From contig JAUVYB010000001.1 in assembly GCA_030603275.1 (NCBI GenBank), positions 19,832 through 83,831 of the forward strand: 64,000 bases of DNA, read 5' to 3'. This document shows positions 9,624 to 34,378 of the stretch, piece by piece. Within the stretch, counting starts at the first letter, position 1; every line of letters begins with the position of its first letter. The translations under genes and the position numbers were made by a program. Origin of the DNA: Deltaproteobacteria bacterium (GTDB taxonomy: Bacteria; Chloroflexota; Dehalococcoidia; Dehalococcoidales; BS750m-G39). Below the pieces are notes generated by a model that worked only from the letters and a program-made list of their open reading frames with translations, made no database searches and was not told the origin of the DNA.

Positions 9624-9624
9624 A

Positions 9625-10410: not shown

Positions 10411-10440
10411 TTTTATCTTAGAACCCTATCCCCTGTATCC

Positions 10441-10499
10441 CCTTCCCCTTGTTAAGAGGAAGGGGAAGGTTTTTTTCTGAAGAGGGACGAAGTCCCTCT
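10441..10499. other. Two adjacent GC-rich hairpins in the 100-nt spacer between the two ATPase genes
   Basis: Hairpin A pairs CCTTCCCCTT (10441-10450) with AAGGGGAAGG (10460-10469), followed by T7 on the plus strand. Hairpin B pairs AAGAGGGAC (10480-10488) with GTCCCTCTT (10492-10500) around a GAA triloop. Confidence 0.6.
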
Positions 10500-10510
10500 T
10501 AAACTCCCCA

Positions 10511-12690: not shown

Positions 12691-12712
12691 ATCCGCTCTC
12701 CTCCATATACCG

Positions 12713-13888: not shown

Positions 13889-13910
13889 TCCTTTCCCCAA
13901 AAGCCCGGCT

Positions 13911-15119
13911 TCAAGGTATTACCTTTTCATTCTTTAAGTTAGTTATGTCATCCCAGGTATAACCCAGCTCTAACAGAATCTCTTCGGTGTGCTGCCCAAG
14001 CTCAGGCGCTTCTCTTTTCACCGAGGCCGGGGTCTCATGGAAAGTCCACGGGAAACCAAGCATCTTTATCTTGCCCCACACCGGGTGGTCAACCGGGATG
14101 ATATAATCATTAGCCAGGGCCTGCGGGTCCTTAAAAACCTCACTGGCCGACTGAATTGGAGTATGGATTACATTCTCCTTCTTAAAAATCTTCATCCACT
14201 CATCTCTGGCCTTGGTAGCAAATCTCTCATCCAGAATAGCCACCAGCTCTTTGCCATTATCATGCCTGGCTTCTATAGTACTAAATTTGGGGTCATGCTC
14301 CAGTTCCTCCAGGCCCATTGCCTTACACACGTTAGGCCAGTACCTATCCGGTTGGAGGTGAGCAATGACAATCCATTTGTCGTCGGCACACTTATAGTGG
14401 CTATAAATAGGGTTACCCGCTTCCGACCTGAGCAATCTGGGGAACTCCTGCCCCAAAACCCCGGGAGCGGCAAAGTTAACTCCATGCAAAGCAATCAGGC
14501 TGCCCATTAATGAAGTATCAACCACCTGCCCCTTACCCGTCTTCTCCCTAGCATAGAGTGCAGCGGTCACCGCCCAGGCACACATAAGCCCACCCTGCTC
14601 GTCACCCATCCCTGGAATCAGGGTTCCCGGCGGACCACCCCTCTCCCCACACATCATCATGGTTCCCGACCTGGCTATACCGGTGTAGTCAAAGGAAAGC
14701 TCATTAGCATCCGGGCCTTTTCTGCCCCAACCAGAGGCATGAGCATAAATAAGCCGCGGGTTCCTCTTGAGAAGTTCCTCAGGATCAATCCCCATCCTCT
14801 TTGGTGCCTCTATACTCATATTGGTCAGGAAAACGTCAGCCTTATCGATCAGCTTTAATAATATCTCCATCCCTTTTTTGGTTTTCAGGTCCAGAACGAT
14901 GCTCCTCTTATTGCGATTATTACTCTCAAAGTAATAGTTCCGCCCTTTTAAACCAGTATCGGCGCCAACAATCCTCATCATCCCTCTCGCCGGGTCTCCA
15001 GTATTAGGTTCAACCTTAATTATATCGGCACCCAAATCACCCAGTCTCATTCCAGCCACCGGCCCCTGCTGAAACATAGTTATCTCCACCACCTTAACCC
15101 CATCTAAAGGTCCAGCCAT
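13911..15119 (-). CDS. Family III CoA-transferase (CaiB/BaiF/Frc/FldA family), copy A
   Basis: 402 aa. N-terminus PLDGVKVVEITMFQQGPVAG and the catalytic-Asp context GMGDEQGG fit the family. Confidence 0.85.
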   Translation of the reverse strand: MAGPLDGVKVVEITMFQQGPVAGMRLGDLGADIIKVEPNTGDPARGMMRIVGADTGLKGRNYYFESNNRNKRSIVLDLKTKKGMEILLKLIDKADVFLTNMSIEAPKRMGIDPEELLKRNPRLIYAHASGWGRKGPDANELSFDYTGIARSGTMMMCGERGGPPGTLIPGMGDEQGGLMCAWAVTAALYAREKTGKGQVVDTSLMGSLIALHGVNFAAPGVLGQEFPRLLRSEAGNPIYSHYKCADDKWIVIAHLQPDRYWPNVCKAMGLEELEHDPKFSTIEARHDNGKELVAILDERFATKARDEWMKIFKKENVIHTPIQSASEVFKDPQALANDYIIPVDHPVWGKIKMLGFPWTFHETPASVKREAPELGQHTEEILLELGYTWDDITNLKNEKVIP

Positions 15120-15222
15120 AATTCACACCTCCTTTAGCAAACCTTAACCGAGGCAGGTTCCCCACTAATAATAACAGGAACCGAAGCCAGATAACAGATG
15201 CCCCATTATCCCCCCTCTCGCT

Positions 15223-16431
15223 CTAAAGTATAGCCTTTTCATCCCTTAGCTTGGTAATATCATCCCAGGTGTAACTCAGCTCTAACAGAATCTCCTCAGT
15301 GTGCTGCCCAAATTCAGGTGCCTCCCTTCTTACCGAAGCCGGGGTTTTACTGAAATCCCAGGGAAAGCCAACCACCTTGGTCCTACCCAAGACCGGGTGG
15401 TCAAACCAGGTAACGTAGTCATTGGCTAGAGCCTGGGGGTCATCAACCACCTCGCCGGTCGATTGAATAGGGGTATAGATTATACCCTCCTTCTTAAAAA
15501 TATCAAACCACTCCTCCCTTGTCTTGGTAAGAAACTCTTTATCCATAATAGCGATAAGCTCTCTGGCATTCGCCCCCCTGGCTTCTATACTATTGAACCT
15601 GGGGTCTTTTTCCAACTCGGGCATACCCAGAGCCCGGCATACATTAGGCCAGTACCTGTCCGGCTGGAGGTGAGCCAAAATGAACCATTTGTCATCCCTA
15701 GCTCTATAGTGGTTATAGATTGGGTTACCAGCCTCAGCTCTGACTTCCCTGGGGAATTCCTGGCCCAGTATAGCCGGCGCCGACAAAACCAGACTTAACA
15801 TAGACACTATACTTCCCATTAGCGAGGTATCAACCAGCTGCCCCTTGCCCGTCCTCTCCCTGGCATAGAGGGCAGTGCAAACCGCCCAGGCACAGACCAT
15901 CCCCCCAAGCTCATCGCCCAGCCCGGGCAATATCTGGGCGGGAGGGGTACCACGCTCCCCACAGGACATCATAAGCCCCGAACGGCCTATACCAGTATAA
16001 TCAAAGGAAAGCCCGTTGGCATCAGGGCCCTTCCTGCCCCAGCCCGAGGCTTGAGCGTAGATAAGCCTTGGATTTCTCTCAAGCAGCGCCTCAGGGCTAA
16101 TGCCTATCTTTATCGGTGCCTCTATACTCAGGTTAGTGACAAAGACATCAGCGCCATCAATCAGCTTTAAGAATATCTCCATACCCCTTTCCGTTTTCAG
16201 GTCCAGGACAATGCTCCTCTTATTACGATTGTGATTCTCAAAGTAATAATTCCGCCCCTTCAAACCAACCATGGTACCAATAATTCTCATAAAGCCTCTG
16301 GCCGGGTCTCCAGTTGGAGGTTCCACCTTAATTACATCGGCACCCAGATCCCCCAGCTTGGTGCCGCAAACCGGCCCCTGCTGAAACATGGTCAGTTCCA
16401 CCACTTTAACTCCATCTAACGGTCCAGGCAT
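15223..16431 (-). CDS. Family III CoA-transferase, copy B (tandem paralogue)
   Basis: Also exactly 402 aa and about 70% identical to copy A by eye, with GLGDELGG. The same CATAATTCACACCTCCT string spans both start sites. Confidence 0.85.
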   Translation of the reverse strand: MPGPLDGVKVVELTMFQQGPVCGTKLGDLGADVIKVEPPTGDPARGFMRIIGTMVGLKGRNYYFENHNRNKRSIVLDLKTERGMEIFLKLIDGADVFVTNLSIEAPIKIGISPEALLERNPRLIYAQASGWGRKGPDANGLSFDYTGIGRSGLMMSCGERGTPPAQILPGLGDELGGMVCAWAVCTALYARERTGKGQLVDTSLMGSIVSMLSLVLSAPAILGQEFPREVRAEAGNPIYNHYRARDDKWFILAHLQPDRYWPNVCRALGMPELEKDPRFNSIEARGANARELIAIMDKEFLTKTREEWFDIFKKEGIIYTPIQSTGEVVDDPQALANDYVTWFDHPVLGRTKVVGFPWDFSKTPASVRREAPEFGQHTEEILLELSYTWDDITKLRDEKAIL

Positions 16432-19109: not shown

Positions 19110-20345
19110 TCAAGGCAATTCTTTACGCTTCCACCCCGTTTCCTTCACGAAAATAAAAGCCACCAGTCCCAGAAGCCCAAAAGCCGCCCAGAGAAAGAAT
19201 GGTAAGGGCGATGCGGGATTACCGGGGTCGGCAAGGCTGTTACCCAGGGGGGGAGAAATAAGCGAACCGACATTGAGAACAGTCTGCACCAGCCCCATGG
19301 CCGTTGCAGCGTAGACTACCCCAATCCCCTTTGTCTCGGTGCTCATAGTCAGACAGACAGCCATAAACCCGTCACGAGCTACGCCAATCAATATCATCAG
19401 AACGCATACCATGGCGTTATCAACCAGCGGCAACAGGGCTACACCCACAATAGTAACTACCAGCACCGGGAAAAGAACCGCTTTTTTCAAACCAATCTTA
19501 GCGGATAACAGAGCCAGCGGGATGGCGCCCAGGGCACTGACCACACTAAAAGCGGCTAATGTGCCGTCAGCACTAGCTGCCGTCCAGCCGATATTACGAA
19601 GATAGGTAGGGAAATAACCAATCAATCCTTGAATACAGGCCGTATAACCTAACAGAGTCAAACCGAGAAGCCAGAGGGATTTGATAGGAAATACGCGTGA
19701 TATCGACTGGCGCAACGGCACACCACTTATAGAAATTGCTGTTCCAATCCCACCATGTTCCCTTACTGTGAAAAGCCACAGCAAGCCGATTATGACTGAT
19801 ATGCCACCGTACAAGAACAACACGTTCTGCCAGCCACCCAGTAACGGCGACAGTATAGTGGCACTAATCAGTGACCCCACGGTAAACCCTAATCCCATAC
19901 CGGCTGACACCGCGCCATTAGCAATCACGAGCCGTCTTCCTGAGAACCAGGTGGCGGTGGTCTTAAAGACACTGCTCGGTATAACCCAAACCGCCAGACC
20001 CATGAAGAAAGTGAACAATACCAAGCTGGGAAAGTCCCCGGCGATGCCTCTCAGGGCACCAGTCAGTCCCGCCAGTAGACAGGCAATACCCATAACACGC
20101 TTGGCCCCGTAGCGGTCAGACAGCAACCCACCGATGAAGACAATAAACAAACCAGCCAAGGCGGGTATACCCCAGATAACACCTATTTCCACCAAACTCA
20201 AGCCAAGGTCCTCTGATATCTCCTTGAAAAGGACCGTCATGCAAATCTGCTGCATGGCAACAGTAAAGGTGAAAGTTAGTGCTGCCAGGGTAAGCACATA
20301 CCACCGATGATTGGGTCTGTTGCTTTGGCTATTAAACATGCTCAC
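19110..20345 (-). CDS. MFS transporter
   Basis: 411 aa with about 12 predicted hydrophobic helices and the motif GGLLSDRYGAKR between TM2 and TM3. Confidence 0.8.
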   Translation of the reverse strand: MSMFNSQSNRPNHRWYVLTLAALTFTFTVAMQQICMTVLFKEISEDLGLSLVEIGVIWGIPALAGLFIVFIGGLLSDRYGAKRVMGIACLLAGLTGALRGIAGDFPSLVLFTFFMGLAVWVIPSSVFKTTATWFSGRRLVIANGAVSAGMGLGFTVGSLISATILSPLLGGWQNVLFLYGGISVIIGLLWLFTVREHGGIGTAISISGVPLRQSISRVFPIKSLWLLGLTLLGYTACIQGLIGYFPTYLRNIGWTAASADGTLAAFSVVSALGAIPLALLSAKIGLKKAVLFPVLVVTIVGVALLPLVDNAMVCVLMILIGVARDGFMAVCLTMSTETKGIGVVYAATAMGLVQTVLNVGSLISPPLGNSLADPGNPASPLPFFLWAAFGLLGLVAFIFVKETGWKRKELP

Positions 20346-20820: not shown

Positions 20821-21423
20821 TTATTTAACTTCTACAGTAGCCCCGGCTGCTTCCAGTTTCTGTTTTATGGTAGTTGCTTCTTCCTGATTAATCCCTTCTT
20901 TTACCGTCTGAGGGGCACTCTCAACGAAGTCCTTTGCCTCTTTCAGCCCCAGGGTAGTAACCTCTCTCACTGCCCTGATAACGCTGATTTTATTAGCCCC
21001 GATTTCTTTGAGAACAACGCTGAACTCCGTTTTCTCCTCAGCCGCCGCTGGAGCTTCAGCCGCTGCTGCCGGCGCTGCTACCGCAACCGGAGCGCTAACG
21101 CCGAACTCAGTCTGTAGCGCCTTGACCAGCTCTGATAGCTCAAGCACACTCATCTTCTTTATACTGGTCATTATCGCCTCAACGGCTGCCGAGCTCTTCA
21201 CCTTAGCCTTGGCTTTGGGTTCCTTTGTCTCAGCCTTGGCTTCAGGTTCCTTCACCTTGGCCTCAGCTTTAGGCTCTTTTACCTCAGCTTTGGCTTCAGG
21301 TTCCTTCACCTCGGCCTCAGCTTTAGGCTCTTTTACCTCAGCCTTGACTTCAGGTTCCTTCACCTCGGCCTCAACTTCAGGTTTCTTGGCTGTTTTTTTG
21401 CCCTTGGCTTCCTCTTCTGGCAT
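20821..21423 (-). CDS. rplL: Ribosomal protein bL12 (L7/L12) with a roughly 75-aa repeat-rich N-terminal extension
   Basis: Residues from about 78 to 200 are canonical L7/L12 ([21 protein letters not shown], an Ala/Pro hinge, and a C-terminal domain ending GATVEVK). The ATG at 21423 sits 5 nt after GAGGGAGGA at the end of rplJ. Confidence 0.9.
21200..21390. repeat. Coding tandem repeat, 54-bp unit (27-bp sub-period), about 3 copies
   Basis: Units at 21231-21284, 21285-21338 and 21339 onward differ by only a few bases. They encode KEPEAKAEV-type nonapeptides. Confidence 0.85.
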
Positions 21424-21424
21424 A

Positions 21425-21949
21425 TTATCCTCCCTCTAATTGCTGAATTCTTGCTTGTAACCCAGCTATAAGCCCCATCATTGGGGAAGTAAGCTGGCCC
21501 ACCAGAGCCGAGATAGGACCTTGCACCCCACCCACAACCATGGCCAATAACACCTCTTTCGACGGTAAGGCAGAAAGGGTGATTACCTCCTCCTTGGTAA
21601 GTAGCCTATCAGGTAAAAGGCCTCCCTTGATACTCATGGTGGCTTTTGAGTCCTCAATGTAAGTGGCTAAAGCTTTAGCCGGTTCAGTTATATCGCCATA
21701 GCCAAAAGCAATCGCCACCGGCCCATCAAGGAAACCGAACAGTTCTTCCCTGCCCGATTTCTGGGCGGCAAACCGGGCCAGCGTGTTCTTCACCACCTTA
21801 TACTCAATCCCCGCCTCCCTCAGCCGGCGCCGCAACTGGGTCATCTCGTTAGCTGATTGACCCCGGTAATCGGTCAGAATAGCAACGCTGCACCGAGAAA
21901 ATAGCTCCTGCAGACTATCGATAATCGCTGTTTTCTTTTCCCTGGACAT
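21425..21949 (-). CDS. rplJ: Ribosomal protein uL10
   Basis: 174 aa with typical L10 sequence ([25 protein letters not shown]) immediately upstream of rplL. Confidence 0.95.
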
Positions 21950-21987
21950 TGCCCTTTACCCCCAATTAACACTATAAATATTCACCT

Positions 21988-22024
21988 AAAAAAGCAGGCC
22001 CTTGCGCCTGCCGCACAAGGGCCT
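21988..22024 (-). terminator. Intrinsic terminator or attenuator hairpin between the DUF35 gene and rplJ
   Basis: On the minus strand, AGGCCCTTG (11-nt loop) CAAGGGCCT forms a 9-bp stem followed by GCTTTTTT. It ends about 38 nt upstream of the rplJ ATG. Confidence 0.6.
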
Positions 22025-22127
22025 ATAATTCAAGCCCTTTGTATCCTCGGCAGGCAGTTCATTAAGCCTCAACTGGCACCCGCTGTCTCAGGAAACCTGT
22101 TTTATCCTGTTATTTTATTCTATTTTA

Positions 22128-22616
22128 CTACTTTACCGGCTCAAAAGCAAAAAACACCCTCGGCGCCTCCTCCATCACACCGCCCCTTTTTTCTATTATC
22201 ATCGGCGGTACATCATAGACAGCCAGCTTGACGGTATCGCCTTCTTTAAGCTGCCCCTCTTTGCAGTTAATGACGCGGGAGATAAGCTTGCGCCCGTCCT
22301 CCAGTTCAATACGGGCGTGAATCAGAGGTGACTCAAAGCCGAGAGGGACTCCGGCTAACTCTTCGGTAAACCGAAGCACCTTGCCCTTAGTGGGCAGGTC
22401 AACCCACTCCAGGGAATCGGAATTACACTTCGGGCAGACCACCCGCGGCGGGAAAGACACGGTGCCGCATTTGGTGCACTTGGTGGTGGTAAAGCGGTTC
22501 TCCCTCAGGTTTTCGTAAAACTGGTGAACACGGTTAAACTCTTTAGCCTCGAAAGGATACATATCCAGAGTCGATGGGTATAAACCTTCTAAAATCGGTA
22601 CTCCCGGTACTGGCAT
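22128..22616 (-). CDS. DUF35 OB-fold/zinc-ribbon protein (thiolase partner)
   Basis: 162 aa with the zinc ribbon CTKCGTVSFPPRVVCPKCNS followed by an OB-fold-like region. Confidence 0.8.
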   Translation of the reverse strand: MPVPGVPILEGLYPSTLDMYPFEAKEFNRVHQFYENLRENRFTTTKCTKCGTVSFPPRVVCPKCNSDSLEWVDLPTKGKVLRFTEELAGVPLGFESPLIHARIELEDGRKLISRVINCKEGQLKEGDTVKLAVYDVPPMIIEKRGGVMEEAPRVFFAFEPVK

Positions 22617-22654
22617 AAACTTACCCCCTTATAATCTAGCGTTAATACTCTCTC

Positions 22655-23836
22655 TTAGGGCTCTCTACCGTAGATGAGTATGGTATGCTCAACGTTAAGG
22701 CCGCTCAGGTTATGGGTCAACCCTATCTTGGCGTCCTTCGCCTGATTTATCGCCCTGCCCTGCAACTGGAAGAAAATCTCCATCGCCTGGCGGATGCCGG
22801 TGGCACCAAAAGGATGGCCGCAGGAGAGCAGGCCGCCATCGGTGTTTACCGGAACCTTACCACCGAAATCGTTCTGTCCCGATTCTACAAAAGCACCCCC
22901 CTCCCCCTTCCTGCAGAACCCAAGGTCCTCCATCTCGATAATCTCCGAGATAGTGAAGCAATCGTGGGTCTGGGCAACATCGACATCTTCGGGACTGACC
23001 CGCGCCCTCTCGAAGGCCTTCTTAGCGGCGGTTCTCAGGTGAACCCAGTCGGACAGGTCTTCACCGAGCCAGTTCATCGACATACTGTGAAGAGAAGCCT
23101 GAGCCGTCCCCCGGATATAGACCAGGGGTCTATCGGTAAGCTCTTTGGCCTTATCCTCACTGACCAATATCACGGCGGCACAGCCGTCGGTGATAGGGGT
23201 ACAGTCAAACAGGCCGAGGGGCGGCACCACCGCCCTGGCATTTATCACCTCTTCTATGGTAACCGCTTTCTGGAACTGCGCCTTGGGGTTGTTGGCACCG
23301 TTACGGCGGTTCTTCACCGAGACAGCCGAAAGCTGCTCCTTGGTCGTGCCGTAGCGCTTCATATGATCCTGGGCAGTCATGCTGAAGAATGGGGGCGGCA
23401 GACCCATACCCTGGGCACCATCCCAATCATGGTCGATGGAAGCCATCTCGCTGTAATAGGTTTCCCAGCGCTGCGGCGTATATAGCTTCTCGCCGCCGGA
23501 TACCATCACCACATCGGCCATCCCTGCTTTTATCAGGCCAGTAGCCATGATAATGCCCGAACTACCACCGGCGCAGAGGGTGTCCACCCTGGTGCAGATG
23601 CTAGTCGGCTTGATACCGATGCGCTCGGCGACTACCGGAGCAGCGTTAACCTGGAAGGCGCTCCGTCCGCAGTAGGAAGAAGCAAAGATAAGGCCGTCTA
23701 TGTCATCTTTCTTCAGTGCCGGTACATCGTCAAAACAATCCTTAGCTGCTTCCTGAGCCATGTCTATTATGCTTGCCTCTCTAACCCCCCACCGATCCAT
23801 ACCCGCGCCGACAATACAAACATTTCTATCCGCCAT
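22655..23836 (-). CDS. Thiolase-like protein (SCP-x / lipid-transfer-type thiolase family)
   Basis: 393 aa with a thiolase fold, an active-site Cys context (TLCAGGSSG) and C-terminal GHPFGATG and NLSG motifs. Confidence 0.8.
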   Translation of the reverse strand: MADRNVCIVGAGMDRWGVREASIIDMAQEAAKDCFDDVPALKKDDIDGLIFASSYCGRSAFQVNAAPVVAERIGIKPTSICTRVDTLCAGGSSGIIMATGLIKAGMADVVMVSGGEKLYTPQRWETYYSEMASIDHDWDGAQGMGLPPPFFSMTAQDHMKRYGTTKEQLSAVSVKNRRNGANNPKAQFQKAVTIEEVINARAVVPPLGLFDCTPITDGCAAVILVSEDKAKELTDRPLVYIRGTAQASLHSMSMNWLGEDLSDWVHLRTAAKKAFERARVSPEDVDVAQTHDCFTISEIIEMEDLGFCRKGEGGAFVESGQNDFGGKVPVNTDGGLLSCGHPFGATGIRQAMEIFFQLQGRAINQAKDAKIGLTHNLSGLNVEHTILIYGREP

Positions 23837-23859
23837 GTTAAAACCTCCTTAAATATCGC

Positions 23860-24273
23860 CTAACCCTTTATAAATTCGTAGGCAATCCTGCCCTCAGGCA
23901 GTTTCACCGGGCTGACCGTTAAATTCATGCCGATCGTGATATCCTTCTCCTCAATATCCCGGCTCAATCGGGCCAGGATCTGTATGCCCTCATCAAACTT
24001 AGCCAGAGCCAGAATATAGGGAGCGTCGTTCTCAAAACCGCTGGGACCGTAATTTACCACAGTATAACTTGCGAGCTTACCCTGGCTCTTAACTTCGAAC
24101 CACTCCACATCGCTGGAAAGGCACTTCGGGCAATCCGCCTTGGGTGGAAAGTAGCTACCCCCGCACTTCCGGCATCTGGTGGCCATTACCTTGCCTGCCT
24201 CCAGTTGGGTTATAAAATCAGCCACCTTGGCTTCGGCAGTAAAGCTAACCGTGCCAAAATTCTCAAAGCCCAT
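23860..24273 (-). CDS. DUF35 OB-fold/zinc-ribbon protein (thiolase partner)
   Basis: 137 aa with the zinc ribbon CRKCGGSYFPPKADCPKCLS. Confidence 0.8.
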   Translation of the reverse strand: MGFENFGTVSFTAEAKVADFITQLEAGKVMATRCRKCGGSYFPPKADCPKCLSSDVEWFEVKSQGKLASYTVVNYGPSGFENDAPYILALAKFDEGIQILARLSRDIEEKDITIGMNLTVSPVKLPEGRIAYEFIKG

Positions 24274-24279
24274 TTAAAG

Positions 24280-25431
24280 CTACCTCCTCAAAATGGTTAC
24301 GTTGCCGTATTGCCCGACGCCACCGATATTATGCACCAGGCCTATCTCTGCGTCCTTCACCTGAGCCTCGGTGGCCTCCCCCCGCAGCTGGCGGACAATA
24401 GTCCGAATTTGCGAGCCGCCGGTAGCGCCTATCGGGTGTCCTTTAGATAACAAACCGCCGTCGACATTTACCGGTATCTTGCCATCGGCATAGGTCTCTT
24501 TATTCTCAATCAACCCCACTCCCTCCCCGGGCTTGGCAAAGCCCAGGTCTTCATAAGCCAGAAGCTCGGAAACGGTAAAACAATCGTGAACCTCGGCCAC
24601 ATCAATATCCTGAGGTTTAACACCGGCCATCTTATAAGCCTGCCTAGCAGCCTCCTGAGCACACCGCAGTCCGGTAAGCGATTCCCTGCCGGCCATGGTC
24701 ATGGTATCAGTGGCCGCCCCCAGACCGGCAACCCAGATGGGGGTTTTGCTTATACTCTTGGCAACATCGCCTCTGGCCAGGATAACGCAGGAGGAGCCGT
24801 CGGCATTGGCGCAACAATCAAACTTCTTCAGCGGGCTGGTTATCATCTCCGAGTTCAAAATAGCCTCCAGGCTCAGCTCCTTGCGGTAGTTGGCCTTGGG
24901 ATTGTCCACCCCGTAGTGGGAGTTCTTGACCCGCACCTTGGCTAAGTGCTCCTCGGTAGTCCCGTACCTGGCCATATGAGCCCGGGCGTACATGGCATAG
25001 CCAGCGGGCATGGTTATCCCAAAGGGGGATTCCCAGATTATATCTCCCCCCCGGCCCATCCTCTCGGCAGCGTCACGGGAGGAAAGCTCGGACATCTTCT
25101 GAAAACCTATCACCGCCACCGTCTTGTGAAGCCCCGCCTTTATCAGTGACCAGGCTACTCTTAAACCCGTGCTGCTGGAGGAACAGACCGTCTCCACATA
25201 GAAGGTCGGCTTGGGGGTCAACTCCAGATACTCCGATATTAAGCCCGATGGTGAGCGCTGTTTATCATATTCCGGCGCCGAGCAAACAACAGAGGCATCT
25301 ATATCATTACCGGTGATATCCAGGCCCTCCAGTGCCTCCTTATAAGCCTCAAAACATAACTCCCGGATAGATTCACCGCAGCTACGACTAAAAACGCTCT
25401 GACCAGCACCGATGACAGCAACATCTTCCAT
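24280..25431 (-). CDS. Thiolase-like protein (SCP-x / lipid-transfer-type thiolase family)
   Basis: 383 aa with VCSSSSTG, GHPIGATG and NIGG motifs. It starts 31 nt after the rplA stop, with AAAGGGGA upstream. Confidence 0.8.
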   Translation of the reverse strand: MEDVAVIGAGQSVFSRSCGESIRELCFEAYKEALEGLDITGNDIDASVVCSAPEYDKQRSPSGLISEYLELTPKPTFYVETVCSSSSTGLRVAWSLIKAGLHKTVAVIGFQKMSELSSRDAAERMGRGGDIIWESPFGITMPAGYAMYARAHMARYGTTEEHLAKVRVKNSHYGVDNPKANYRKELSLEAILNSEMITSPLKKFDCCANADGSSCVILARGDVAKSISKTPIWVAGLGAATDTMTMAGRESLTGLRCAQEAARQAYKMAGVKPQDIDVAEVHDCFTVSELLAYEDLGFAKPGEGVGLIENKETYADGKIPVNVDGGLLSKGHPIGATGGSQIRTIVRQLRGEATEAQVKDAEIGLVHNIGGVGQYGNVTILRR

Positions 25432-25462
25432 TAGGCATCCCCTTTATAAGACTATTGTATTA

Positions 25463-26176
25463 TCAACCAGAGGTTAACGATAAGGTTGGTTTCAGATCAA
25501 GCTTTATGCCAGGTCCCATAGTAGTAGTCAAAGAAGCGGTCTTGATATACTGGCCCTTGGCACCGGCAGGCTTAGCCCGGGATATTGCCTCAATCACAGC
25601 GGTAAGATTGCCCATCAGCTTATCAGCCTCAAAACTAACCTTACCCAGCGAGACATGAATAATAGCCGTCCTGTCCAGTTTAAACTCCACCCGCCCCTGG
25701 CGGGCCTCGTTGATTGCCCGGGGCAAGTTTTCGCCAGCCACAACCGTCCCCGACTTGGGGTTAGGCATCAGTCCCCGCCTCCCCAGAATTTTCCCCAGCC
25801 GGCCTACCTTACCCATCATATCCGGGGTAGCTATAGCAGTATCAAAATCCAAAAAGCCACCATCAATCTTCTTAATCAAATCATCGCCACCCACCAAATC
25901 AGCCCCAGCGGTCTCGGCGTCTCTGGCCGCTTCACCTTGAGCAAAAACCAGAACCCGCACCTTTTTGCCCAGACCATGGGGCAAAAGAGCCACACCGCGC
26001 ACCTGCTGGGTAGCATCACGGGGGTCAACACCCATCCGCAGGTGAAGCTCAACCGTCTCATCAAATTTGGAGTAAGCCACCTTCTTGGCCAGCTCAATAG
26101 CCTCCAGGGGAGGATAAAGCTGGGCACTGTCTACCAGACCGACCGCTTCATTATATTTCTTACCGTGTTTAGTCAA
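25463..26176 (-). CDS. rplA: Ribosomal protein uL1
   Basis: 237 aa with typical L1 sequence (GKKYNEA..., [15 protein letters not shown]). Confidence 0.95.
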
Positions 26177-26178: not shown

Positions 26179-26604
26179 TTATTCCACCTCAATACCCATA
26201 CTTTGGGCGGTGCCCTCAATAATTCGCTCCGCCCCTTCAATACTGCCAGCATTCAAATCCTTAGCCTTAAGTTGGGCTATCTCCCGGAGTTGGGCTCGAG
26301 TTATCTTACCCACCTTTTCATGCCCGGGACCGGTTGAGCCCTTTTCTATGCCCAGCGCTTTTTTGAGCAAATCGGTAGCCGGCGGCGTTTTGGTAATAAA
26401 GGTAAAAGAGCGATCCTCAAATACGGTTATTTCCACCGGAATAATAGAACCTTCCTGGCTGGCAGTACGCTCGTTGTATTCCTTACAGAAGGCCATAATA
26501 TTAAGCCCATGCTGTCCCAGGGCAGGTCCTACCGGCGGCGCCGGATTAGCCTTCCCCGCTGGAATCTGTAGTTTAATGACAGTTACAACCTTCTTTTTGG
26601 CCAC
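26179..26604 (-). CDS. rplK: Ribosomal protein uL11
   Basis: 141 aa starting [33 protein letters not shown]. Confidence 0.96.
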
Positions 26605-26613: not shown

Positions 26614-27159
26614 CTAAAGCTTCTCCACCTGCAAAAAATCAAGCTCTACCGGCGTCTCCCGCCCGAAAAGGGAAAGGAGCACTCTTACCTTACCCTTATC
26701 CATACTGATTTCACTCACCACCCCAACAAAATCAATAAAGGGACCGCTGGTCACCCGCACACTCTGCCCTTTACGGAAACCAACCCTGACCCTTGGTGCT
26801 TCCGCCTCCATCTGTTTCAAAATTTTATTAACCTCCTCTTCCTCAAGAGGAGTCGGCTTATTACCGCTACCAACAAAACCAGTGACACCGGGGGTATTAC
26901 GCACTATATTCCAGCTCTGGTCGCTCAGCTCCATCTGAACCAGAATATAACCGGGCAGTATCTTTTTATCCACATTGCGCCGCTGCCCGTTCTTAACCTC
27001 AATCTCCACCTCAATCGGTATAACCACCTGGGAGATTTCCTCCCCGCTGTCCATGTACTTAATACGTTGCTCCAGATTCTTCTTAACTCGTTCTTCATAC
27101 CCGGAGTAGGTATGAACCACAAACCAACTTTTCTGATTCCCTTCCACCGATAACCTCAT
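26614..27159 (-). CDS. nusG: Transcription termination/antitermination factor NusG
   Basis: 181 aa with an NGN domain (WFVVHTYSGYEERVKKNLE) and a KOW domain (GQSVRVTSGPFIDFVGVV). Confidence 0.95.
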   Translation of the reverse strand: MRLSVEGNQKSWFVVHTYSGYEERVKKNLEQRIKYMDSGEEISQVVIPIEVEIEVKNGQRRNVDKKILPGYILVQMELSDQSWNIVRNTPGVTGFVGSGNKPTPLEEEEVNKILKQMEAEAPRVRVGFRKGQSVRVTSGPFIDFVGVVSEISMDKGKVRVLLSLFGRETPVELDFLQVEKL

Positions 27160-27198: not shown

Positions 27199-27408
27199 CT
27201 ATCCGCCCAGAAAGAATTTATCGACCAGGTTGGTAAAACCAAAATCAAAGGCTCCCAGAAGTAAAGCCACTATAACAGCCACAATTAGCACCATAAAGGT
27301 CAAATAAGCCGCCTCTCGTCTGGTGAGCCAGACTACCTTTTTTAACTCGGCTATGGTTTCACCAATAATACTAAACCTAGAACGTTTGGAAGTAGCACGA
27401 TGAGTCAT
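27199..27408 (-). CDS. secE: Preprotein translocase subunit SecE
   Basis: 69 aa with ELKKVVWLTRRE followed by a single TM helix. Positioned between rpmG and nusG. Confidence 0.85.
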   Translation of the reverse strand: MTHRATSKRSRFSIIGETIAELKKVVWLTRREAAYLTFMVLIVAVIVALLLGAFDFGFTNLVDKFFLGG

Positions 27409-27443: not shown

Positions 27444-27611
27444 CTACTTTGTCTCCTTATGGAGAGTATGAGTGCGACAACGGGGGCAATACTTCTTGAG
27501 TTCCAACCTCTGAGAGTCGTTGCGCCTATTCTTACTAGTAGTATATGTTCTCTCCCTGCATTCGGTGCAGGCAAGATAGATAATATTCCTGGCTTCAGCC
27601 TTTCTCGCCAT
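27444..27611 (-). CDS. rpmG: Ribosomal protein bL33
   Basis: Absent from the ORF track, so I translated it by hand. It gives 55 aa: [55 protein letters not shown]. Confidence 0.9.
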
Positions 27612-27613: not shown

Positions 27614-28819
27614 TTACTCGATGATGCGGCTAATGGTACCGGCACCTACCGTTCTACCCCCTTCCCTGATTGCAAAACGCAGACCTTGCTCCATGGCCAC
27701 CGGATAGATAAGCCTTATCTTCATGTCAATATTATCGCCGGGCATGACCATTTCCACCCCTTCCGGCAGCTCGATAGTCCCGGTAACATCAGTAGTCCTG
27801 ATATAAAACTGTGGCTTATAACCGTTAAAGAAGGGTGTATGCCTGCCTCCCTCATCCTTACTCAAAACATATATCCGAGCCTCAGCGTAGGTATGGGGCT
27901 TAATGCTCCCGGGGGCAGCTAACACCTGACCCCGCTCTATCTTCTCCCGGTCTATACCCCGCAGCAGAACGCCGACGGCGTCTCCCGGCTCAGCATAATC
28001 CAGAGTCTTATGGAACATCTCCAAGCTGGTAGCCACCGTCTTGTGGGGCTCGTGGTGCAAGCCAACTATTTCAATCTCATCCCCGGCTTTAATCACGCCT
28101 CTCTCAACCCTCCCCGTGGGCACGGTACCCCGCCCCTTGATGCTGAAAACATCCTCCACTGACATCAAGAAGGGCTTGTCTTTAGGCCGCTCCGGGGTCG
28201 GAATATAGCTATCAACGGCATCCATCAACTTCCAGATAGCACCGCACCACTCACACTCCCGCTTGCCACAGCCGCACTCCAGAACCTTAAGGGCGCTCAC
28301 TCTAATTATGGGAACCTCGCTGCCGGGGAAGCCATACTTGGGCAGTAATTCCTCCCTGAGCTCCATTTCGGTCACCTCTAAAAGCTCCGGGTCATCCACC
28401 AGGTCTATTTTATTCAGAGCGGTCACTATGTACGGCACCTCAACCTGATGCGCCAGCAAGAGATGCTCCCTAGTCTGAGGCATCACGCCGTCATCAGCCG
28501 CCACCACCAGTATGGCACCGTCCATCTGGGCAGCACCGGTTATCATGTTCTTAATATAATCGGCATGCCCCGGACAATCAATATGAGCGTAGTGACGTTT
28601 CTCAGTCTCATACTCAATATGAGCAATAGCGATGGTCAGTCCCCGCGCCTTTTCCTCAGGCGCATTATCAATAGTGGCAAACTCACGGTAAGAGGCAAAA
28701 CCCACCTTGGACAACACCAGGGTAATCGCCGCGGTCAAGGTTGTCTTGCCATGGTCAACATGACCGATAGTGCCCACATTGCAATGGGGCTTTGTCCGCT
28801 CAAATTTCTTCTTTGCCAT
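27614..28819 (-). CDS. tuf: Elongation factor Tu
   Basis: 401 aa with G motifs [13 protein letters not shown] and NKID. Unusual cysteine cluster at residues 182-192. Confidence 0.98.
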
Positions 28820-28837: not shown

Positions 28838-28910
28838 AGCCCACAACCAGATTCGAACTGGTGACCCCGTTCTTACCAAGAACGTGCTCTACCAACTGAG
28901 CTATGTGGGC
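28838..28910 (-). tRNA. tRNA-Thr (anticodon GGU)
   Basis: Hand-folded cloverleaf: acceptor GCCCACA/TGTGGGC, anticodon loop TTGGTAA, T-loop TTCGAAT. CCA is not encoded. Confidence 0.9.
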
Positions 28911-29560: not shown

Positions 29561-29858
29561 AAACTGAATATTGAATAAAGGCTGAGAACGAGACTAGTAG
29601 GCTCCAAGCGGGGCTAAAGAGAGCCGGGTAAGGTGTAAGCCGGCGCCAGCGCAGGGGTTGAATGGACTCGGGAGCCGCAAACCGAAAGGGATTCCCAAGT
29701 AGGCTTTGACGGAGGGGCACCGTTAGCTGAGCCCAGAGTATCGCTTTAAATATTAAGGCTGTACCCGAAAAGAGATGGTTGCCATTTTGGTAATCAATTA
29801 GGGTGGCACCGCGAAGGATTAACCTTTCGCCCCTATAGGGGTGGGAGGTTATTTTTTT
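29561..29858 (+). promoter_or_regulatory. T-box leader RNA, probable Trp (UGG) specifier
   Basis: T-box sequence AATTAGGGTGGCACCGCG lies at about 29796-29813. Also present: AGAGAG (AG-bay-like), an AGTA motif, and GAA-TGG-A with TGG at 29663-29665. A terminator follows directly. Confidence 0.8.
29823..29858 (+). terminator. T-box terminator hairpin
   Basis: CCTTTCGCCCC-TATA-GGGGTGGGAGG forms an 11-bp stem including 3 G-U pairs, followed by TTATTTTTTT. The RBS AAAGGAG and the GTG start of trpE follow. Confidence 0.75.
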
Positions 29859-29881
29859 AGGGAAAAGGAGTTAAGTTTACT

Positions 29882-31342
29882 GTGTACCATCCAACACTGG
29901 AAGAATTTAAAGCACTGGGAAAGAGAGGAAATCTGGTGCCCGTCTACCGCGAGGTTGCGGCGGGTTCGGATACACCGGTTTCCGCCTTCTTGAAGGTAAA
30001 ACGCGGCGGTTATTCCTTCCTTCTGGAGAGCGTGGAAGGCGGCAAACAGGCGGCTCACTACAGCTTTATCGGCACCGAGCCCTACCAGGTGCTCAGCACC
30101 AGAGAGGGAGATAAAACCGACCCCCTTAACCTCATCGCCGAAGAAATGAACAAGCACAGGCTGGTACCGGCAAGCGGACTGCCTGATTTCTGCGGCGGCG
30201 CCGTCGGCTACCTTGCCTACGAAACGATACGGCGCCTGGAAGAACTTCCCTCACCAGACTCTGACCCCCTGGCTCTGCCCGAATCGGTGTTCATGTTCGT
30301 TGATACTATGCTCATCTTCGACCACGCTGCTAATAAAATCAAAATCGCAAGCCACGCCCGCCCCGATGGCGACGCCGACAGCGCCTACCAGGCAGCAATA
30401 GAGAAGATAGAGGAATTAGTAAACAGACTCGCCCAACCCCTCAAAAACCCCCGGCACCTGATAGCAGACACACCAGCACAACCTGCTGAAATCTCTTCCA
30501 ACCTCACTAGAGAAGAATTTGAAACCAATGTCGAGAAGGCAAGGCAATATATAACCGAGGGCGAAACCATCCAGATTGTGCTCTCCCAGCGCCTGAGCCG
30601 GCGCACCAACGCCCATCCCTTTGAAATCTACCGGGCCCTGCGGAGCATCAACCCATCACCCTATATGTTCTTCCTGGACTTAAAGGACTTCCAGCTCATC
30701 GGCTCATCCCCCGAAATCCTGGTAAGAGCGGTAAACGGCACGGCGACCACCCGCCCCCTAGCGGGGACAAGGCCGAGGGGGAAGACACCCCCCGAGGATG
30801 CCCGGCTGGAAAAAGAGCTCCGCAATGACGAGAAGGAACGAGCCGAGCACATAATGCTGGTAGACCTGGGGCGCAACGACATCGGGCGGGTGAGCCTGCC
30901 GGGAACGGTCAAGGTCAGCGAACTTATGGATGTGGAACGCTACTCTCACGTCATGCACCTGGTCACCAATGTGGAAGGCAAGCTGCGCCCCGAACTCACC
31001 CCCTTTGACGCCCTGCGCGCCTGCTTTCCCGCCGGCACCGTCTCCGGTGCGCCCAAAATCCGTGCCATGGAGGCTATCGCCGAGCTTGAGCCGGACAAGA
31101 GAGGCCCCTACGCCGGCTGCGTGGGCTACTTCAGCTTCTCCGGCAGTATGGATACCGCCATAACCATAAGGACTATTATCCTGACCGAGGGAACAGCCCA
31201 TGTCCAGGCTGGCGCCGGCATTGTCTATGACAGCGTGCCGGCGCGGGAATATGAAGAAACCATGAACAAGGCCCGCGCCCTGTTAAAAGCCATCGAGCAG
31301 GCCGAGGCTACGGAGATGACCTATGCTGCTGCTGATAGATAA
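29882..31342 (+). CDS. trpE: Anthranilate synthase component I
   Basis: 486 aa, chorismate-binding family (LLESVEGG, GAGIVYDSVP). GTG start. Confidence 0.95.
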   Translation: MYHPTLEEFKALGKRGNLVPVYREVAAGSDTPVSAFLKVKRGGYSFLLESVEGGKQAAHYSFIGTEPYQVLSTREGDKTDPLNLIAEEMNKHRLVPASGLPDFCGGAVGYLAYETIRRLEELPSPDSDPLALPESVFMFVDTMLIFDHAANKIKIASHARPDGDADSAYQAAIEKIEELVNRLAQPLKNPRHLIADTPAQPAEISSNLTREEFETNVEKARQYITEGETIQIVLSQRLSRRTNAHPFEIYRALRSINPSPYMFFLDLKDFQLIGSSPEILVRAVNGTATTRPLAGTRPRGKTPPEDARLEKELRNDEKERAEHIMLVDLGRNDIGRVSLPGTVKVSELMDVERYSHVMHLVTNVEGKLRPELTPFDALRACFPAGTVSGAPKIRAMEAIAELEPDKRGPYAGCVGYFSFSGSMDTAITIRTIILTEGTAHVQAGAGIVYDSVPAREYEETMNKARALLKAIEQAEATEMTYAAADR

Positions 31343-31904
31343 TTATGATAGCTTTACCTATAACCTGTACCAGTACTTAAGCGAACTGGGGGAAGAGGTA
31401 CGGGTAGTCCGCAATAACAAGACAACTCTGGACGAAATTGAAATGATGAACCCGGAGCGCATCGTAATCTCACCCGGCCCCTCCACCCCCTTAAACGCCG
31501 GCATATCCAACGATGTCATCCGGCATTTTAGCGCCAAGGTGCCCGTCCTCGGCGTTTGCCTGGGTCACCAGTGTATCGGCTATAGCTACGGAGGCGCCTT
31601 TGGCCCGGCCAGGAAGATTATGCACGGTAAGTCGTCTCTGATCTACCATAACAATACCGGCGTCTTTAGTAGCCTCCCCAACCCATTCCCCGCCATCCGC
31701 TATCACTCTCTGGTCGTAGTCCGGGAAGAACTCCCCGACTCTCTGGAGATAACCGCCTGGACCGAAGATAACACCATCATGGGGCTTCGTCACCGCCACC
31801 ACCCGGTGGAGGGGGTGCAGTTCCACCCCGAATCTTTTATGACCCACGCCGGGAAGGATATACTAAGAAATTTCCTGGCCAAGGAGGTGGCCCGGCATGA
31901 TTAA
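31323..31904 (+). CDS. trpG: Anthranilate synthase component II (glutamine amidotransferase)
   Basis: 193 aa with MLLLIDNYDSFTYNLYQYL, GVCLGHQ and FHPES. Confidence 0.95.
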   Translation: MLLLIDNYDSFTYNLYQYLSELGEEVRVVRNNKTTLDEIEMMNPERIVISPGPSTPLNAGISNDVIRHFSAKVPVLGVCLGHQCIGYSYGGAFGPARKIMHGKSSLIYHNNTGVFSSLPNPFPAIRYHSLVVVREELPDSLEITAWTEDNTIMGLRHRHHPVEGVQFHPESFMTHAGKDILRNFLAKEVARHD

Positions 31905-32928
31905 GGAAGCTATTACCTTATTAATAGATAGGCAGTCCCTCACTATGGAGCAGGCCGCCGGGGTGATGGAGGAGATGACCACGGGACAGGTAACACCAGC
32001 CCAGTTCGGTGCCTTTGTCACTGCCCTCAGAATCAAAGGTGAGACCGCCGACGAGATTGCCGGGCTGGCCAGCGTCATGCGGGCTAAATCAGTCCGGGTA
32101 AAGACCACCGACCCGGTGATTGATATTGTCGGCACCGGAGGCGATAACTCCCGGAGTTTCAATATTTCCACCGCCGCCGCCTTTGTTGCTGCCGGCGCCG
32201 GGATAAAGGTAGCCAAGCACAACAACCGCGCCGTGACCAGTCAGTGCGGCAGTGCCGATGTCCTAGAGGCACTGGGAATAAAAATTGAACTCAATGCTAA
32301 TCAAGTAAAAGACTGCCTGGAAAAGGTAGGCATAGGCTTCATGTTTGCCCCCCTCTTCCACCCGGCAATGAAGTTCGCCGCTGCCCCCCGGCGTGAGATT
32401 GGCATACGCACTATATTTAATATCCTCGGCCCGCTGACCAACCCGGCGCTGGCTGAGTCCCAGGTTCTGGGTGTGCCCGGCGAGGAACTCGGCGGAAAGC
32501 TGGTTCAAGTGCTCCAGCGCCTGGGTTCAAAGCACGCCATGGTGGTCCATAGCCTGAACGGAATGGATGAATTCTCAATAGCCGGCAAGTCCCGGGTTTG
32601 GGAACTAAGCAACGGCAAGATAACCGATTACCCTGTCGCCCCCGAGGACTTCGGGCTGGTGGCCGCCGGAGTAGAGACACTGTTGGGAGGCACACCCCAG
32701 GAGAATGCGGCCATACTGCGCTCGGTGCTGGAGGGGGAAAAAGGGCCGAAAAGAGACGCCGTGATTATGAACGCCGCCGCCGGCATAGCGGTCAGTCACC
32801 GCACTAAAAATCGCTCAGGGCTGCCCGCCCTGAAGGAAGGCGCCGAGATAGCCCGGGAAACAATAGACAGCAGGCGGGCGCTGGACAAACTGGATAAACT
32901 AATTACACTAAGCCAGAGCTACGGTTAA
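31897..32928 (+). CDS. trpD: Anthranilate phosphoribosyltransferase
   Basis: 343 aa with DIVGTGGD and KHNNRAVTSQCGSADVLEALG. Confidence 0.95.
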   Translation: MIKEAITLLIDRQSLTMEQAAGVMEEMTTGQVTPAQFGAFVTALRIKGETADEIAGLASVMRAKSVRVKTTDPVIDIVGTGGDNSRSFNISTAAAFVAAGAGIKVAKHNNRAVTSQCGSADVLEALGIKIELNANQVKDCLEKVGIGFMFAPLFHPAMKFAAAPRREIGIRTIFNILGPLTNPALAESQVLGVPGEELGGKLVQVLQRLGSKHAMVVHSLNGMDEFSIAGKSRVWELSNGKITDYPVAPEDFGLVAAGVETLLGGTPQENAAILRSVLEGEKGPKRDAVIMNAAAGIAVSHRTKNRSGLPALKEGAEIARETIDSRRALDKLDKLITLSQSYG

Positions 32929-32933
32929 GAGCC

Positions 32934-33704
32934 ATGTTTCTAGATAAGATTGTTGCCGAAAAGCGGGAAGAGCTAAAGCAGAGGCAGGAAACTGTCCCCC
33001 TGCCCGAGCTCAGGACGGCCATCATGGAAAGGCCTTTGCCCCTGAATCTGGCGGCGGCTCTTAGCGGGGATGGTCTCCGTTTAATTGCCGAGGTCAAGCG
33101 GGCGTCGCCTTCCCGGGGAGTATTATGCCCTGACCTAGACCCGGTTAAGCTGGCCGGCACCTACGCCCAGTGCGGGGCGGCGGCAATATCGGTGCTCACC
33201 GAGTCGCGGTATTTCGGGGGGAGCAGGGAAGACCTTGAAGCCATTAAGCGCGCCTTACCCGATATTCCCCTATTAAGGAAAGACTTTATCCTGAAGCCCT
33301 ACCAGATATTTGAATCGTGTGCCTGGGGAGCCGACGCCGTGCTGCTGATTGTGGCCATATTGGATGACTTCGAACTCGGGGAACTGCTCTCGTTGACCCA
33401 CGCTCTGGGAATGCAGTGCCTGGTTGAAGTGCACAACAAAAATGAGCTCAAAAAGGCGCTGGCACACAATATCAAGATAATCGGTATTAATAATCGCGAC
33501 CTTGATACCATGATTGTAGATATAAACGTGACCAGGCAGCTTCGCCCCCCCATCCCCCGGGGCCGGATAGTGGTCAGTGAAAGCGGCATCAAAGGGCGGG
33601 ATGAGGTCGAGAAGCTGAAGGAATGGAAGGTTAACGCCATACTTGTTGGCGAGGCGCTGGTTACCGCCGATGACGTGGCGGCCAAGATAAAGGAGCTACT
33701 TTGA
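32934..33704 (+). CDS. trpC: Indole-3-glycerol-phosphate synthase
   Basis: 256 aa with IAEVKRASPSRG, LRKDF and GINNRDL. Confidence 0.95.
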   Translation: MFLDKIVAEKREELKQRQETVPLPELRTAIMERPLPLNLAAALSGDGLRLIAEVKRASPSRGVLCPDLDPVKLAGTYAQCGAAAISVLTESRYFGGSREDLEAIKRALPDIPLLRKDFILKPYQIFESCAWGADAVLLIVAILDDFELGELLSLTHALGMQCLVEVHNKNELKKALAHNIKIIGINNRDLDTMIVDINVTRQLRPPIPRGRIVVSESGIKGRDEVEKLKEWKVNAILVGEALVTADDVAAKIKELL

Positions 33705-34342: not shown

Positions 34343-34378
34343 AGCAATGGATTATCCAATCAAAGGAGGAACAGGCAA

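Follow-up and report, generated by a model that had tools for sequence, protein, structure and literature searches.

Why do two pairs of genes for acyl-coenzyme A (acyl-CoA) metabolism stand among the ribosomal protein genes of a bacterium? The question is raised by a stretch of 64,000 nucleotides (nt), hereafter the window, taken from contig JAUVYB010000001.1 (positions 19,832 to 83,831) of assembly GCA_030603275.1, which is titled Deltaproteobacteria bacterium and placed by GTDB in the Dehalococcoidales. Here rplA and rplJ are separated by 3.3 kb that encode, on their strand, a thiolase, a DUF35 protein, a second thiolase and a second DUF35 protein (thl1, DUF35a, thl2 and DUF35b). We consider it probable that the four genes form two independent beta-ketothiolase/DUF35 modules, placed at the 3' end of the tuf-rplA run, expressed by read-through and situated ahead of the promoter and leader of rplJL. 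The enzymes themselves are of known type and are not new. Their conserved placement and the exchange of one module as a cassette appear to be undescribed: our literature search returned nothing that combines DUF35 with Dehalococcoidia, and the papers in which DUF35, a thiolase and a ribosomal protein occur together lack this arrangement.

An earlier note, made from the sequence, had described the array between rplA and rplJ and a thl1 start 31 nt past the rplA stop with its own ribosome-binding site. Both descriptions hold, as the four open reading frames (ORFs) are in place and the 31-nt spacer carries the Shine-Dalgarno sequence AAAGGGGA. From the ORF list and its translations, the minus-strand order is tuf-rpmG-secE-nusG-rplK-rplA-thl1-DUF35a-thl2-DUF35b-L10 leader-rplJ-rplL, and everything from 28819 down to 20821 is on that strand. 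Coordinates follow window numbering, and minus-strand genes are read from high to low position.

29046-29017 and 28954-28926, upstream of tuf: promoter-like sites (consensus scan)
28838-28910, upstream of tuf: tRNA-Thr (tRNA scan)
27614..28819, minus: tuf (EF-Tu), the protein gene that opens the same-strand run (ORF and translation)
27444..27611, minus: putative rpmG (L33, 55 aa), absent from the 60-aa ORF list and identified by direct reading and translation
27199..27408, minus: secE (ORF; orthologues in relatives match PF00584)
26614..27159, minus: nusG (Pfam NusG and KOW)
26179..26604, minus: rplK (L11; Pfam)
25463..26176, minus: rplA (L1; Pfam Ribosomal_L1, E 5e-64)
25432..25462, minus: rplA-thl1 spacer, 31 nt, with a Shine-Dalgarno sequence and with neither a hairpin nor a good promoter match (sequence)
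24280..25431, minus: thl1, thiolase, 383 aa (Pfam, NCBIfam PRK06064)
23860..24273, minus: DUF35a, 137 aa (Pfam zf-ChsH2 and OB_ChsH2_C)
22655..23836, minus: thl2, thiolase, 393 aa (Pfam, PDB matches, contexts of orthologues)
22128..22616, minus: DUF35b, 162 aa (Pfam zf-ChsH2)
22095..23862, minus: exchangeable cassette: thl2 and DUF35b with the promoter-like region and the very start of the L10 leader (blastn breakpoints)
22117..22144, minus: promoter-like site TTGAGC-16-TAGAAT, candidate rplJL promoter, overlapping the DUF35b stop (consensus scan)
21982..22110, minus: L10 leader (RF00557; Rfam)
22025-21995, minus: attenuator hairpin and T-run inside the L10 leader (terminator scan)
21425..21949, minus: rplJ (L10; Pfam)
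20821..21423, minus: rplL (L7/L12, 200 aa; Pfam domains at residues 82-124 and 134-200)

Pfam or NCBIfam matches support all of these gene assignments save rpmG and secE; the ORF at 27444..27611 we take to be L33, having recognised it by eye without a family search. The intergenic gaps measure 2 nt (tuf to rpmG), 35 nt (rpmG to secE), 39 nt (secE to nusG), 9 nt (nusG to rplK), 2 nt (rplK to rplA), 31 nt (rplA to thl1), 6 nt (thl1 to DUF35a), 23 nt (DUF35a to thl2), 38 nt (thl2 to DUF35b) and 178 nt (DUF35b to rplJ), and every gap from tuf through DUF35b is at most 39 nt. The Shine-Dalgarno sequence of DUF35a is located within the 3' end of thl1. G+C content runs across the insert without a break, and a recent horizontal insertion was rejected since neither G+C nor skew changes there.

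The proteins themselves are readily classified. Both thiolases match Thiolase_C_1 (PF22691; thl1 E 1.7e-46, 158 bits; thl2 E 6e-43, 147 bits) together with Pfam Thiolase_N and Thiolase_C, and the two are 36% identical. Against NCBIfam PRK06064, thl1 scores 439 bits, above the cut-off of 420, and thl2 scores 359 bits, below it. Against solved structures, thl1 scores highest with the acetyl-CoA acetyltransferase 7yvy (243 bits), followed by the archaeal thiolase 6esq_A (211 bits); thl2 scores highest with 6esq_A (217 bits), followed by 4yzo (214 bits). Alignment to 7yvy and 6esq_A places all catalytic motifs in both proteins: VETVCSSS (with the Cys nucleophile), VHDCFTV and GHPIGATG in thl1, and VDTLCAGG (likewise), THDCFTI and GHPFGATG in thl2. 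The DUF35 proteins match zf-ChsH2 (E 2.2e-12 for DUF35a and 2.4e-13 for DUF35b), and the four cysteines of the zinc ribbon are kept in each (CRKC...CPKC and CTKC...CPKC, respectively). OB_ChsH2_C is matched at 53.3 bits by DUF35a and at 26.5 bits, marginally below the cut-off of 27.1, by DUF35b, which has an N-terminal extension of ~35 aa. Both are stand-alone proteins with no fused MaoC domain detected by Pfam. The two pairs thus both belong to the ketothiolase/DUF35 type, with a thiolase of the SCP2/archaeal subfamily and a DUF35 gene directly downstream. Pairs of this type are scaffolded condensing enzymes, often several per genome (10.1101/2024.07.05.601840; PMC6996347). For thl1-DUF35a and thl2-DUF35b alike, the most likely predicted function is that of an acetoacetyl-CoA or 3-ketoacyl-CoA thiolase with a DUF35 scaffold; the formation of thiolase-DUF35 complexes and the substrate range are inferred.

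Is the placement peculiar to one genome? With one genome scanned per species, a relative of thl1 turned up in 462 genomes; the best 80 were examined, with gene order determined by tblastn. Almost all of these 80 are labelled Dehalococcoidales, Dehalococcoidia or Chloroflexota, and five are titled Deltaproteobacteria or Anaerolineae. The earlier note had left it to a synteny survey whether the insertion is lineage-wide, and it is: thl1 directly follows rplA in 50 of the 80 species-level genomes. A misassembly join, the other outcome envisaged there, was rejected because the rplA-thl1 junction recurs in 50 independent assemblies and because long metagenome contigs, up to 415 kb, carry the same arrangements. 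The loci of the relatives, which are given L numbers, show four layouts.

Layout A, 18 loci: rplA-thl1-DUF35-rplJ
Layout B (the window type), 17 loci: rplA-thl1-DUF35-thl2-DUF35b-rplJ
Layout C, 12 loci: rplA-thl1-DUF35, then a 467-aa protein resembling 3-hydroxy-3-methylglutaryl-CoA (HMG-CoA) synthase (HMGCS) fused to DUF35, then a thiolase, then rplJ
Layout D, about 29 loci: thl1-DUF35 elsewhere in the genome, or a contig too short to tell

Three further contigs stop just past rplA-thl1. DUF35 adjoins thl1 in every locus that has sequence downstream of thl1, and the second slot, where filled, always holds another thiolase and a DUF35-containing protein. Over 41 loci the mean identity of thl1 is 84.5%, as against 83.8% for EF-Tu, 82.3% for L11, 81.0% for NusG, 77.0% for L1 and 65.9% for L10, and thl1 is also more conserved than SecE. 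Conservation at the level of EF-Tu fits a core, highly expressed enzyme.

In rough neighbour-joining trees the deepest branches belong to layout A, with layouts B and C intermingled, and comparison at the DNA level independently proves this intermingling. Up to the DUF35a stop, L004 (type C) and L027 (type B) share 98.8% identity over 9.5 kb; from the L10 leader on they again share 97.2%, and the middle is replaced. Between the window and L006 (type C), blastn homology breaks at 23863 and 22094, the same edges as in L004 and L027. A middle replaced between near-identical flanks shows that thl2-DUF35b and the promoter-like region behind it form an exchangeable cassette. Since pair 1 occurs alone in relatives and pair 2 is swapped, the two pairs are not one obligate unit; rather, thl1-DUF35a is a lineage-wide core module and thl2-DUF35b an accessory, swappable one.

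The alternative cassette, found in L001-L004, L006, L007, L015, L021-L023, L025, L026, L031, L038, L054 and L060, consists of the 467-aa HMGCS-like::DUF35 fusion followed by a 392-aa thiolase (e.g., L002:9581-12190), and its architecture is PhlACB-like. The four-gene unit of layout C also occurs away from ribosomal protein genes, in L076 and L078. At the position of the catalytic Cys of HMGCS the layout C protein has Leu (FACKAG is replaced by HSLRGG), where PhlA has Gly, and an assignment of the 467-aa protein as HMG-CoA synthase was rejected on the loss of this Cys and the resemblance to PhlA. The locus is present on both L022 and L023, contigs of a single metagenome-assembled genome (MAG), an indication that two strains were binned together. 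Three MAGs titled Deltaproteobacteria (L005, L006 and L021) have ribosomal protein genes 82-99% identical to those of the window (93-99% in L005), and their titles are probably taxonomic mislabels.

How, then, are the inserted genes transcribed? Promoters were scanned for with a simple sigma-70-type -35/-10 score (maximum 12, threshold 9), a consensus from which Dehalococcoidia promoters may depart. On the minus strand, from rplA to the end of DUF35b, the scan found no promoter-like site of at least 9/12, and the search for terminator-like sites returned only weak 5-bp stems within coding sequence. The statement that no terminator is visible between rplA and thl1 therefore stands, and no good sigma-70-type promoter is seen there either. 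Among relatives, 3 of 41 loci score at least 9 upstream of thl1 and 23 of 41 upstream of the L10 leader, as compared with 2/41 and 8/41 in coding controls. The rplA-thl1 spacer is AT-rich and -10-like (TACAAT, TATAAA); in nearly all layout B and C relatives it is 20-37 nt long, and only GAAAGGGG is conserved in it. Entropy at four-fold sites is 1.25-1.47 bits at the 3' end of rplA and 1.24-1.52 bits elsewhere in the gene, and the lack of extra synonymous-site constraint argues against an embedded promoter. A hidden promoter at the 3' end of rplA was accordingly rejected, the synonymous sites being unconstrained and promoter-like scores not enriched. With neither a terminator nor a good promoter between rplA and the insert, read-through from the upstream transcript is the simplest reading, and thl1-DUF35a-thl2-DUF35b are probably carried on a translation-gene transcript.

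At the other end of the insert, the sequence between DUF35b and rplJ matches the L10 leader family RF00557 at 22110-21982 (61.6 bits against a gathering score of 44, over the full model, 1-138). The earlier note had reported a single terminator-like hairpin after the last DUF35 gene. Its position is right: the hairpin at 22025-21995 (13 pairs, 8 of them GC, with a T-run) is the sole strong one in the minus-strand scan. Its assignment to the metabolic genes is not, as the hairpin falls inside the RF00557 match and forms that leader's attenuator stem; a dedicated terminator after DUF35b was rejected on the same grounds. A "terminator" adjoining rplJ is usually the attenuator of this leader. The leader is present in 9 of 9 related loci tested, between the last inserted gene and rplJ, and an alignment of relatives identifies the hairpin GTCCTTGTGCGGCAGGCGCAAGGAC with T5 as the best conserved part of the leader region. 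The promoter-like sequence TTGAGC-16-TAGAAT (22144-22117) ends 7 nt ahead of the leader, and -10-like boxes occur at the same position in relatives, with TGnTATAAT in layouts A and C. Together, the leader and the promoter-like box upstream of it place the insert on the rplKA side of a boundary between rplKA and a promoter-leader-rplJL unit, and rplJL appears to retain its own promoter and control. The junction of rplA and rplJ is a known operon boundary, set by the promoters PL11 and PL10 in Escherichia coli, and rplA and rplJ can be separated by other genes in other bacteria, for example in Mycobacterium tuberculosis. The insert therefore does lie within the rplKA-rplJL cluster, as had been said, and it sits at an operon boundary instead of inside one transcription unit.

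Gene context in relatives bears on what the two modules may do. Homologues of thl2 at 67-72% identity are found outside the class, and thl2-DUF35b orthologues sit in hbd-crt-thl-DUF35 operons in three unrelated contexts (Syntrophorhabdus and two other lineages), where the DUF35 protein has 165-166 aa and is 60-63% identical to DUF35b over its full length. In layout D, the neighbours of thl1-DUF35 are convergent crt and hbd genes, or the string SDR-thl-DUF35-MDR-ECH-ECH (short-chain and medium-chain dehydrogenase/reductases and enoyl-CoA hydratases), or acyl-CoA dehydrogenase genes nearby. One layout A genome has a MaoC dehydratase gene between rplA and thl1. In 13-14 layout A loci, crt, hbd and a classical thiolase II follow rplL on the same strand, 360-500 nt downstream in 13 and ~4.5 kb downstream in L057. 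These neighbourhoods of hbd, crt, MaoC and ECH point to short-chain 3-ketoacyl-CoA and acetoacetyl-CoA chemistry. The crt-hbd-thiolase II genes after rplL were seen in L029, L035, L040, L042, L044, L047 (L047:13250-16209, for example), L049-L052, L055, L058 and L061; in deeper-branching relatives C4 acyl-CoA genes thus lie to either side of rplJL.

Some observations weigh against co-transcription with the ribosomal protein genes and against the assigned chemistry. The mean -10-like/promoter score is higher upstream of thl1 (7.5) than in coding controls (5.6), some of the deeper-branching layout A relatives have rplA-thl1 spacers of 60-110 nt, and in L058 this spacer contains a hairpin and a T-run; thl1 may be insulated in part of the clade. 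Co-transcription with rplKA is read purely from the absence of signals. Genes for hbd, crt and acyl-CoA dehydrogenase were not found in the 64-kb window, and substrate specificity is deduced from neighbours in other genomes. It could accordingly be argued that the thiolase genes have their own non-consensus promoter in the 3' end of rplA or the spacer, and that their ribosomal neighbourhood has no regulatory meaning; the AT-rich, -10-like spacer, the somewhat raised scores, the longer layout A spacers with the L058 hairpin and the known E. coli boundary would all suit this proposal. We nevertheless think it unlikely given the scarcity of sites reaching 9/12 (none in the window and 3 of 41 loci), the unconserved synonymous sites in rplA, and spacers compacted to 20-37 nt in which only the Shine-Dalgarno sequence is conserved, 31 nt being too short for a terminator. 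A wholly different account of the neighbourhood would have a DUF35 protein moonlighting in translation, on the model of Sulfolobus Trf: this DUF35 member (Sso2509) acts on aIF2 and mRNA (PMC6996347), and thl1-DUF35 adjoins prfA-prmC in some relatives. Its probability is close to negligible, since each DUF35 is paired with a thiolase in every locus with downstream sequence, Trf is archaeal and stand-alone, and no sequence hint of RNA binding was seen.

The remaining alternatives concern what the enzymes are. The earlier note took two non-identical pairs to suggest one hetero-oligomeric enzyme that forms or cleaves C-C bonds. Four adjacent and probably co-transcribed genes would be expected in that case, and a second slot always filled by a thiolase and a DUF35-containing protein suggests some functional link; but pair 1 is on its own in 18 relatives at this site and in ~29 loci elsewhere, pair 2 is swapped for a different module between genomes ~98% identical in their flanks and has orthologues without pair 1 in hbd-crt-thl-DUF35 operons, and solved complexes show a separate DUF35 for each thiolase dimer (PMC6996347). 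With pair 1 so often alone and pair 2 an exchanged cassette, we regard the single enzyme as very unlikely. An acetoacetyl-CoA thiolase of an archaeal-type mevalonate pathway would agree with the Methanothermococcus thermolithotrophicus thiolase being among the closest characterised relatives of thl1, with the archaeal-type acetoacetyl-CoA thiolase and mevalonate pathway of other Chloroflexi (PMC6107057), and with the HMGCS-like::DUF35 fusion adjoining pair 1 in layout C. This role for thl1-DUF35a is highly improbable: the window contains no HMG-CoA synthase, as the earlier note had remarked, the catalytic Cys is missing from the HMGCS-like protein of relatives, as from PhlA, Dehalococcoidia are reported to have only the methylerythritol phosphate (MEP) pathway (PMC6107057), and at other sites the genes nearby are crt and hbd instead of genes for the mevalonate pathway. 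The affinities to BbsAB thiolases and steroid side-chain aldolases that had been raised do not survive comparison with the family models. For the DUF35 proteins BbsA is the sole NCBIfam match, and Bcr/HgdAB-type and CoA-transferase genes lie 6-15 kb away in the window, as might be hoped of BbsAB-like thiolases or Ltp2/ChsH2-like retro-aldolases in aromatic, hydrocarbon or steroid side-chain degradation. The scores, though, are far too low (NCBIfam BbsB 170 and 180 bits against a cut-off of 750, BbsA 43 and 37 against 250; in the PDB, BbsB 147-163 and Ltp2 (6ok1_A) 120-131 against 211-217 for the archaeal thiolase, with the PhlC structure also far under the latter for thl1 and thl2), and there is no MaoC-DUF35 fusion partner. 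Ltp2-type aldolases have lost the Cys nucleophile and the Cys of HDCF, both of which the window thiolases keep, and we find degradation of this kind scarcely credible here. The criterion for steroid aldolases, namely that thiolase catalytic residues have been repurposed, follows PMC12329534.

We therefore favor two independent ketothiolase/DUF35 modules at the 3' end of the tuf-rplA run. Module 1 would be an archaeal-type acetoacetyl-CoA or 3-ketoacyl-CoA thiolase with DUF35a as its zinc-ribbon/OB-fold scaffold, and module 2 an accessory pair derived from the hbd-crt-thl-DUF35 (C4 acyl-CoA) operon family, whose slot would be exchanged between strains by homologous recombination. Read-through from the translation-gene operon would give all four genes constitutive, growth-linked expression. 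Longer transcripts would reach the L10-leader attenuator, which would end the upstream unit too when L10(L12)4 is in excess, and rplJL would keep its own promoter and autoregulation. A further and quite unlikely extension is that thl1/DUF35a is the condensing enzyme of an archaeal-style acyl-CoA elongation, independent of acyl carrier protein (ACP), that Dehalococcoidales need for growth, its position behind rplKA being an adaptive wiring of lipid or C4-precursor synthesis to ribosome synthesis, and the adjacent slot a strain-variable site for alternative condensing modules. The EF-Tu-like conservation of thl1, the MaoC or SDR-MDR-ECH neighbours and the crt-hbd-thiolase genes after rplL fit this extension without proving it.

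What is new at this locus is a thiolase/DUF35 pair that is part of the secE-nusG-rplKA string across a large uncultured clade of Dehalococcoidales and is conserved to the level of EF-Tu, followed by a slot for a second condensing module that is exchanged by recombination. Pair 1 is probably a core and highly expressed enzyme in the carbon metabolism of not-yet-cultured organisms, which abound in sediments and aquifers, and the locus offers a simple marker for strain-level variation.

Several other features of the window and its relatives deserve mention. The rplL product has an N-terminal extension of ~80 aa ahead of a normal dimerisation domain, a Lys/Glu/Pro/Ala repeat (KEPEAKAEV) encoded mainly at 21196-21387 by a 27/54-nt tandem repeat and beginning at an ATG directly after rplJ. 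Extensions of about 10-170 aa occur in most related Dehalococcoidales and are missing from a few (L057 and L058, for instance); a literature search on N-terminal extensions of bL12 found nothing relevant. A gene for a major facilitator superfamily (MFS) transporter at 19110-20345 follows rplL, and rpoBC is not there. Residues of about 180-195 of EF-Tu form a Cys-rich stretch that resembles a small metal-binding insertion in domain I. At 6941-16431 (minus strand) lie genes for two family III CoA-transferases, two HGD-D proteins, two BcrAD/BadFG ATPases, an FAD-linked oxidase and a CCG/4Fe-4S protein; the HGD-D and BcrAD/BadFG set is of the benzoyl-CoA reductase or 2-hydroxyacyl-CoA dehydratase type, and the run points to anaerobic acyl-CoA metabolism near the ribosomal protein cluster. 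CoA-transferase III genes also occur near the cluster in L001, L004 and L087. On the plus strand, a T-box leader (RF00230, 119.5 bits) heads a same-strand tryptophan/shikimate run at 29575-42681 with trpE, trpG, trpD, trpC, trpF, DAHP synthase, aroB, aroA, trpB and trpA, and other ORFs between them.

How does the locus compare with known systems? Its architecture resembles the boundary between rplKA and rplJL(-rpoBC) in E. coli and Bacillus subtilis in that rplJ is preceded by its own promoter-like site and by an L10 leader bearing a terminator hairpin, the leader acting in B. subtilis by L10(L12)4-dependent transcription attenuation (PMC4538822). The window differs in the 3.3 kb of metabolic genes appended on the rplKA side and in the MFS transporter gene that follows rplL in place of rpoBC. 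The uncharacterised hbd-crt-thiolase-DUF35 operons of Syntrophorhabdus and other anaerobes share thl2 and the long DUF35 protein of ~165 aa, whereas the window has only the thl-DUF35 half, placed in a ribosomal protein cluster without hbd or crt. BbsAB (PDB 7PXP) and Ltp2-ChsH2(DUF35) (PDB 6OK1) likewise combine a thiolase-fold protein with a DUF35 partner; the window proteins differ from them in scoring under the equivalog cut-offs and below their own match to the archaeal thiolase, in keeping their Cys residues and in lacking a MaoC fusion. The PhlACB acyltransferase of Pseudomonas, a Friedel-Crafts enzyme (PDB 5M3K), is a counterpart of the layout C cassette, which is found in relatives and is absent from the window: the HMGCS-like protein of that cassette also lacks the Cys, scores 125 bits to PhlA and is accompanied by a DUF35 domain and a thiolase-like protein, although in layout C the DUF35 domain is fused to the PhlA-like protein.

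Of the same thiolase subfamily is the archaeal thiolase/HMGCS/DUF35 complex of M. thermolithotrophicus (6ESQ/6ET9), which differs in its HMGCS, absent from the window, and in that the host class of the window is reported on the MEP pathway (PMC6107057), and which is alike in the Cys, HDCF and GHP motifs and in the adjacent zinc-ribbon/OB-fold DUF35 protein. Finally, Saci_1121/1120 of the ACP-independent fatty acid synthase complex of Sulfolobus acidocaldarius (10.1101/2024.07.05.601840) differs in that the host of the window is bacterial, while the preprint restricts DUF35 proteins of the Saci_1120 type to archaea, and in that the window encodes neither a reductase nor a dehydratase. It is alike in the order of ketothiolase and DUF35 and in having several such pairs per genome, and relatives of thl1-DUF35 cluster with genes for SDR, MaoC/ECH and MDR-type reductases, the enzyme set of that pathway.

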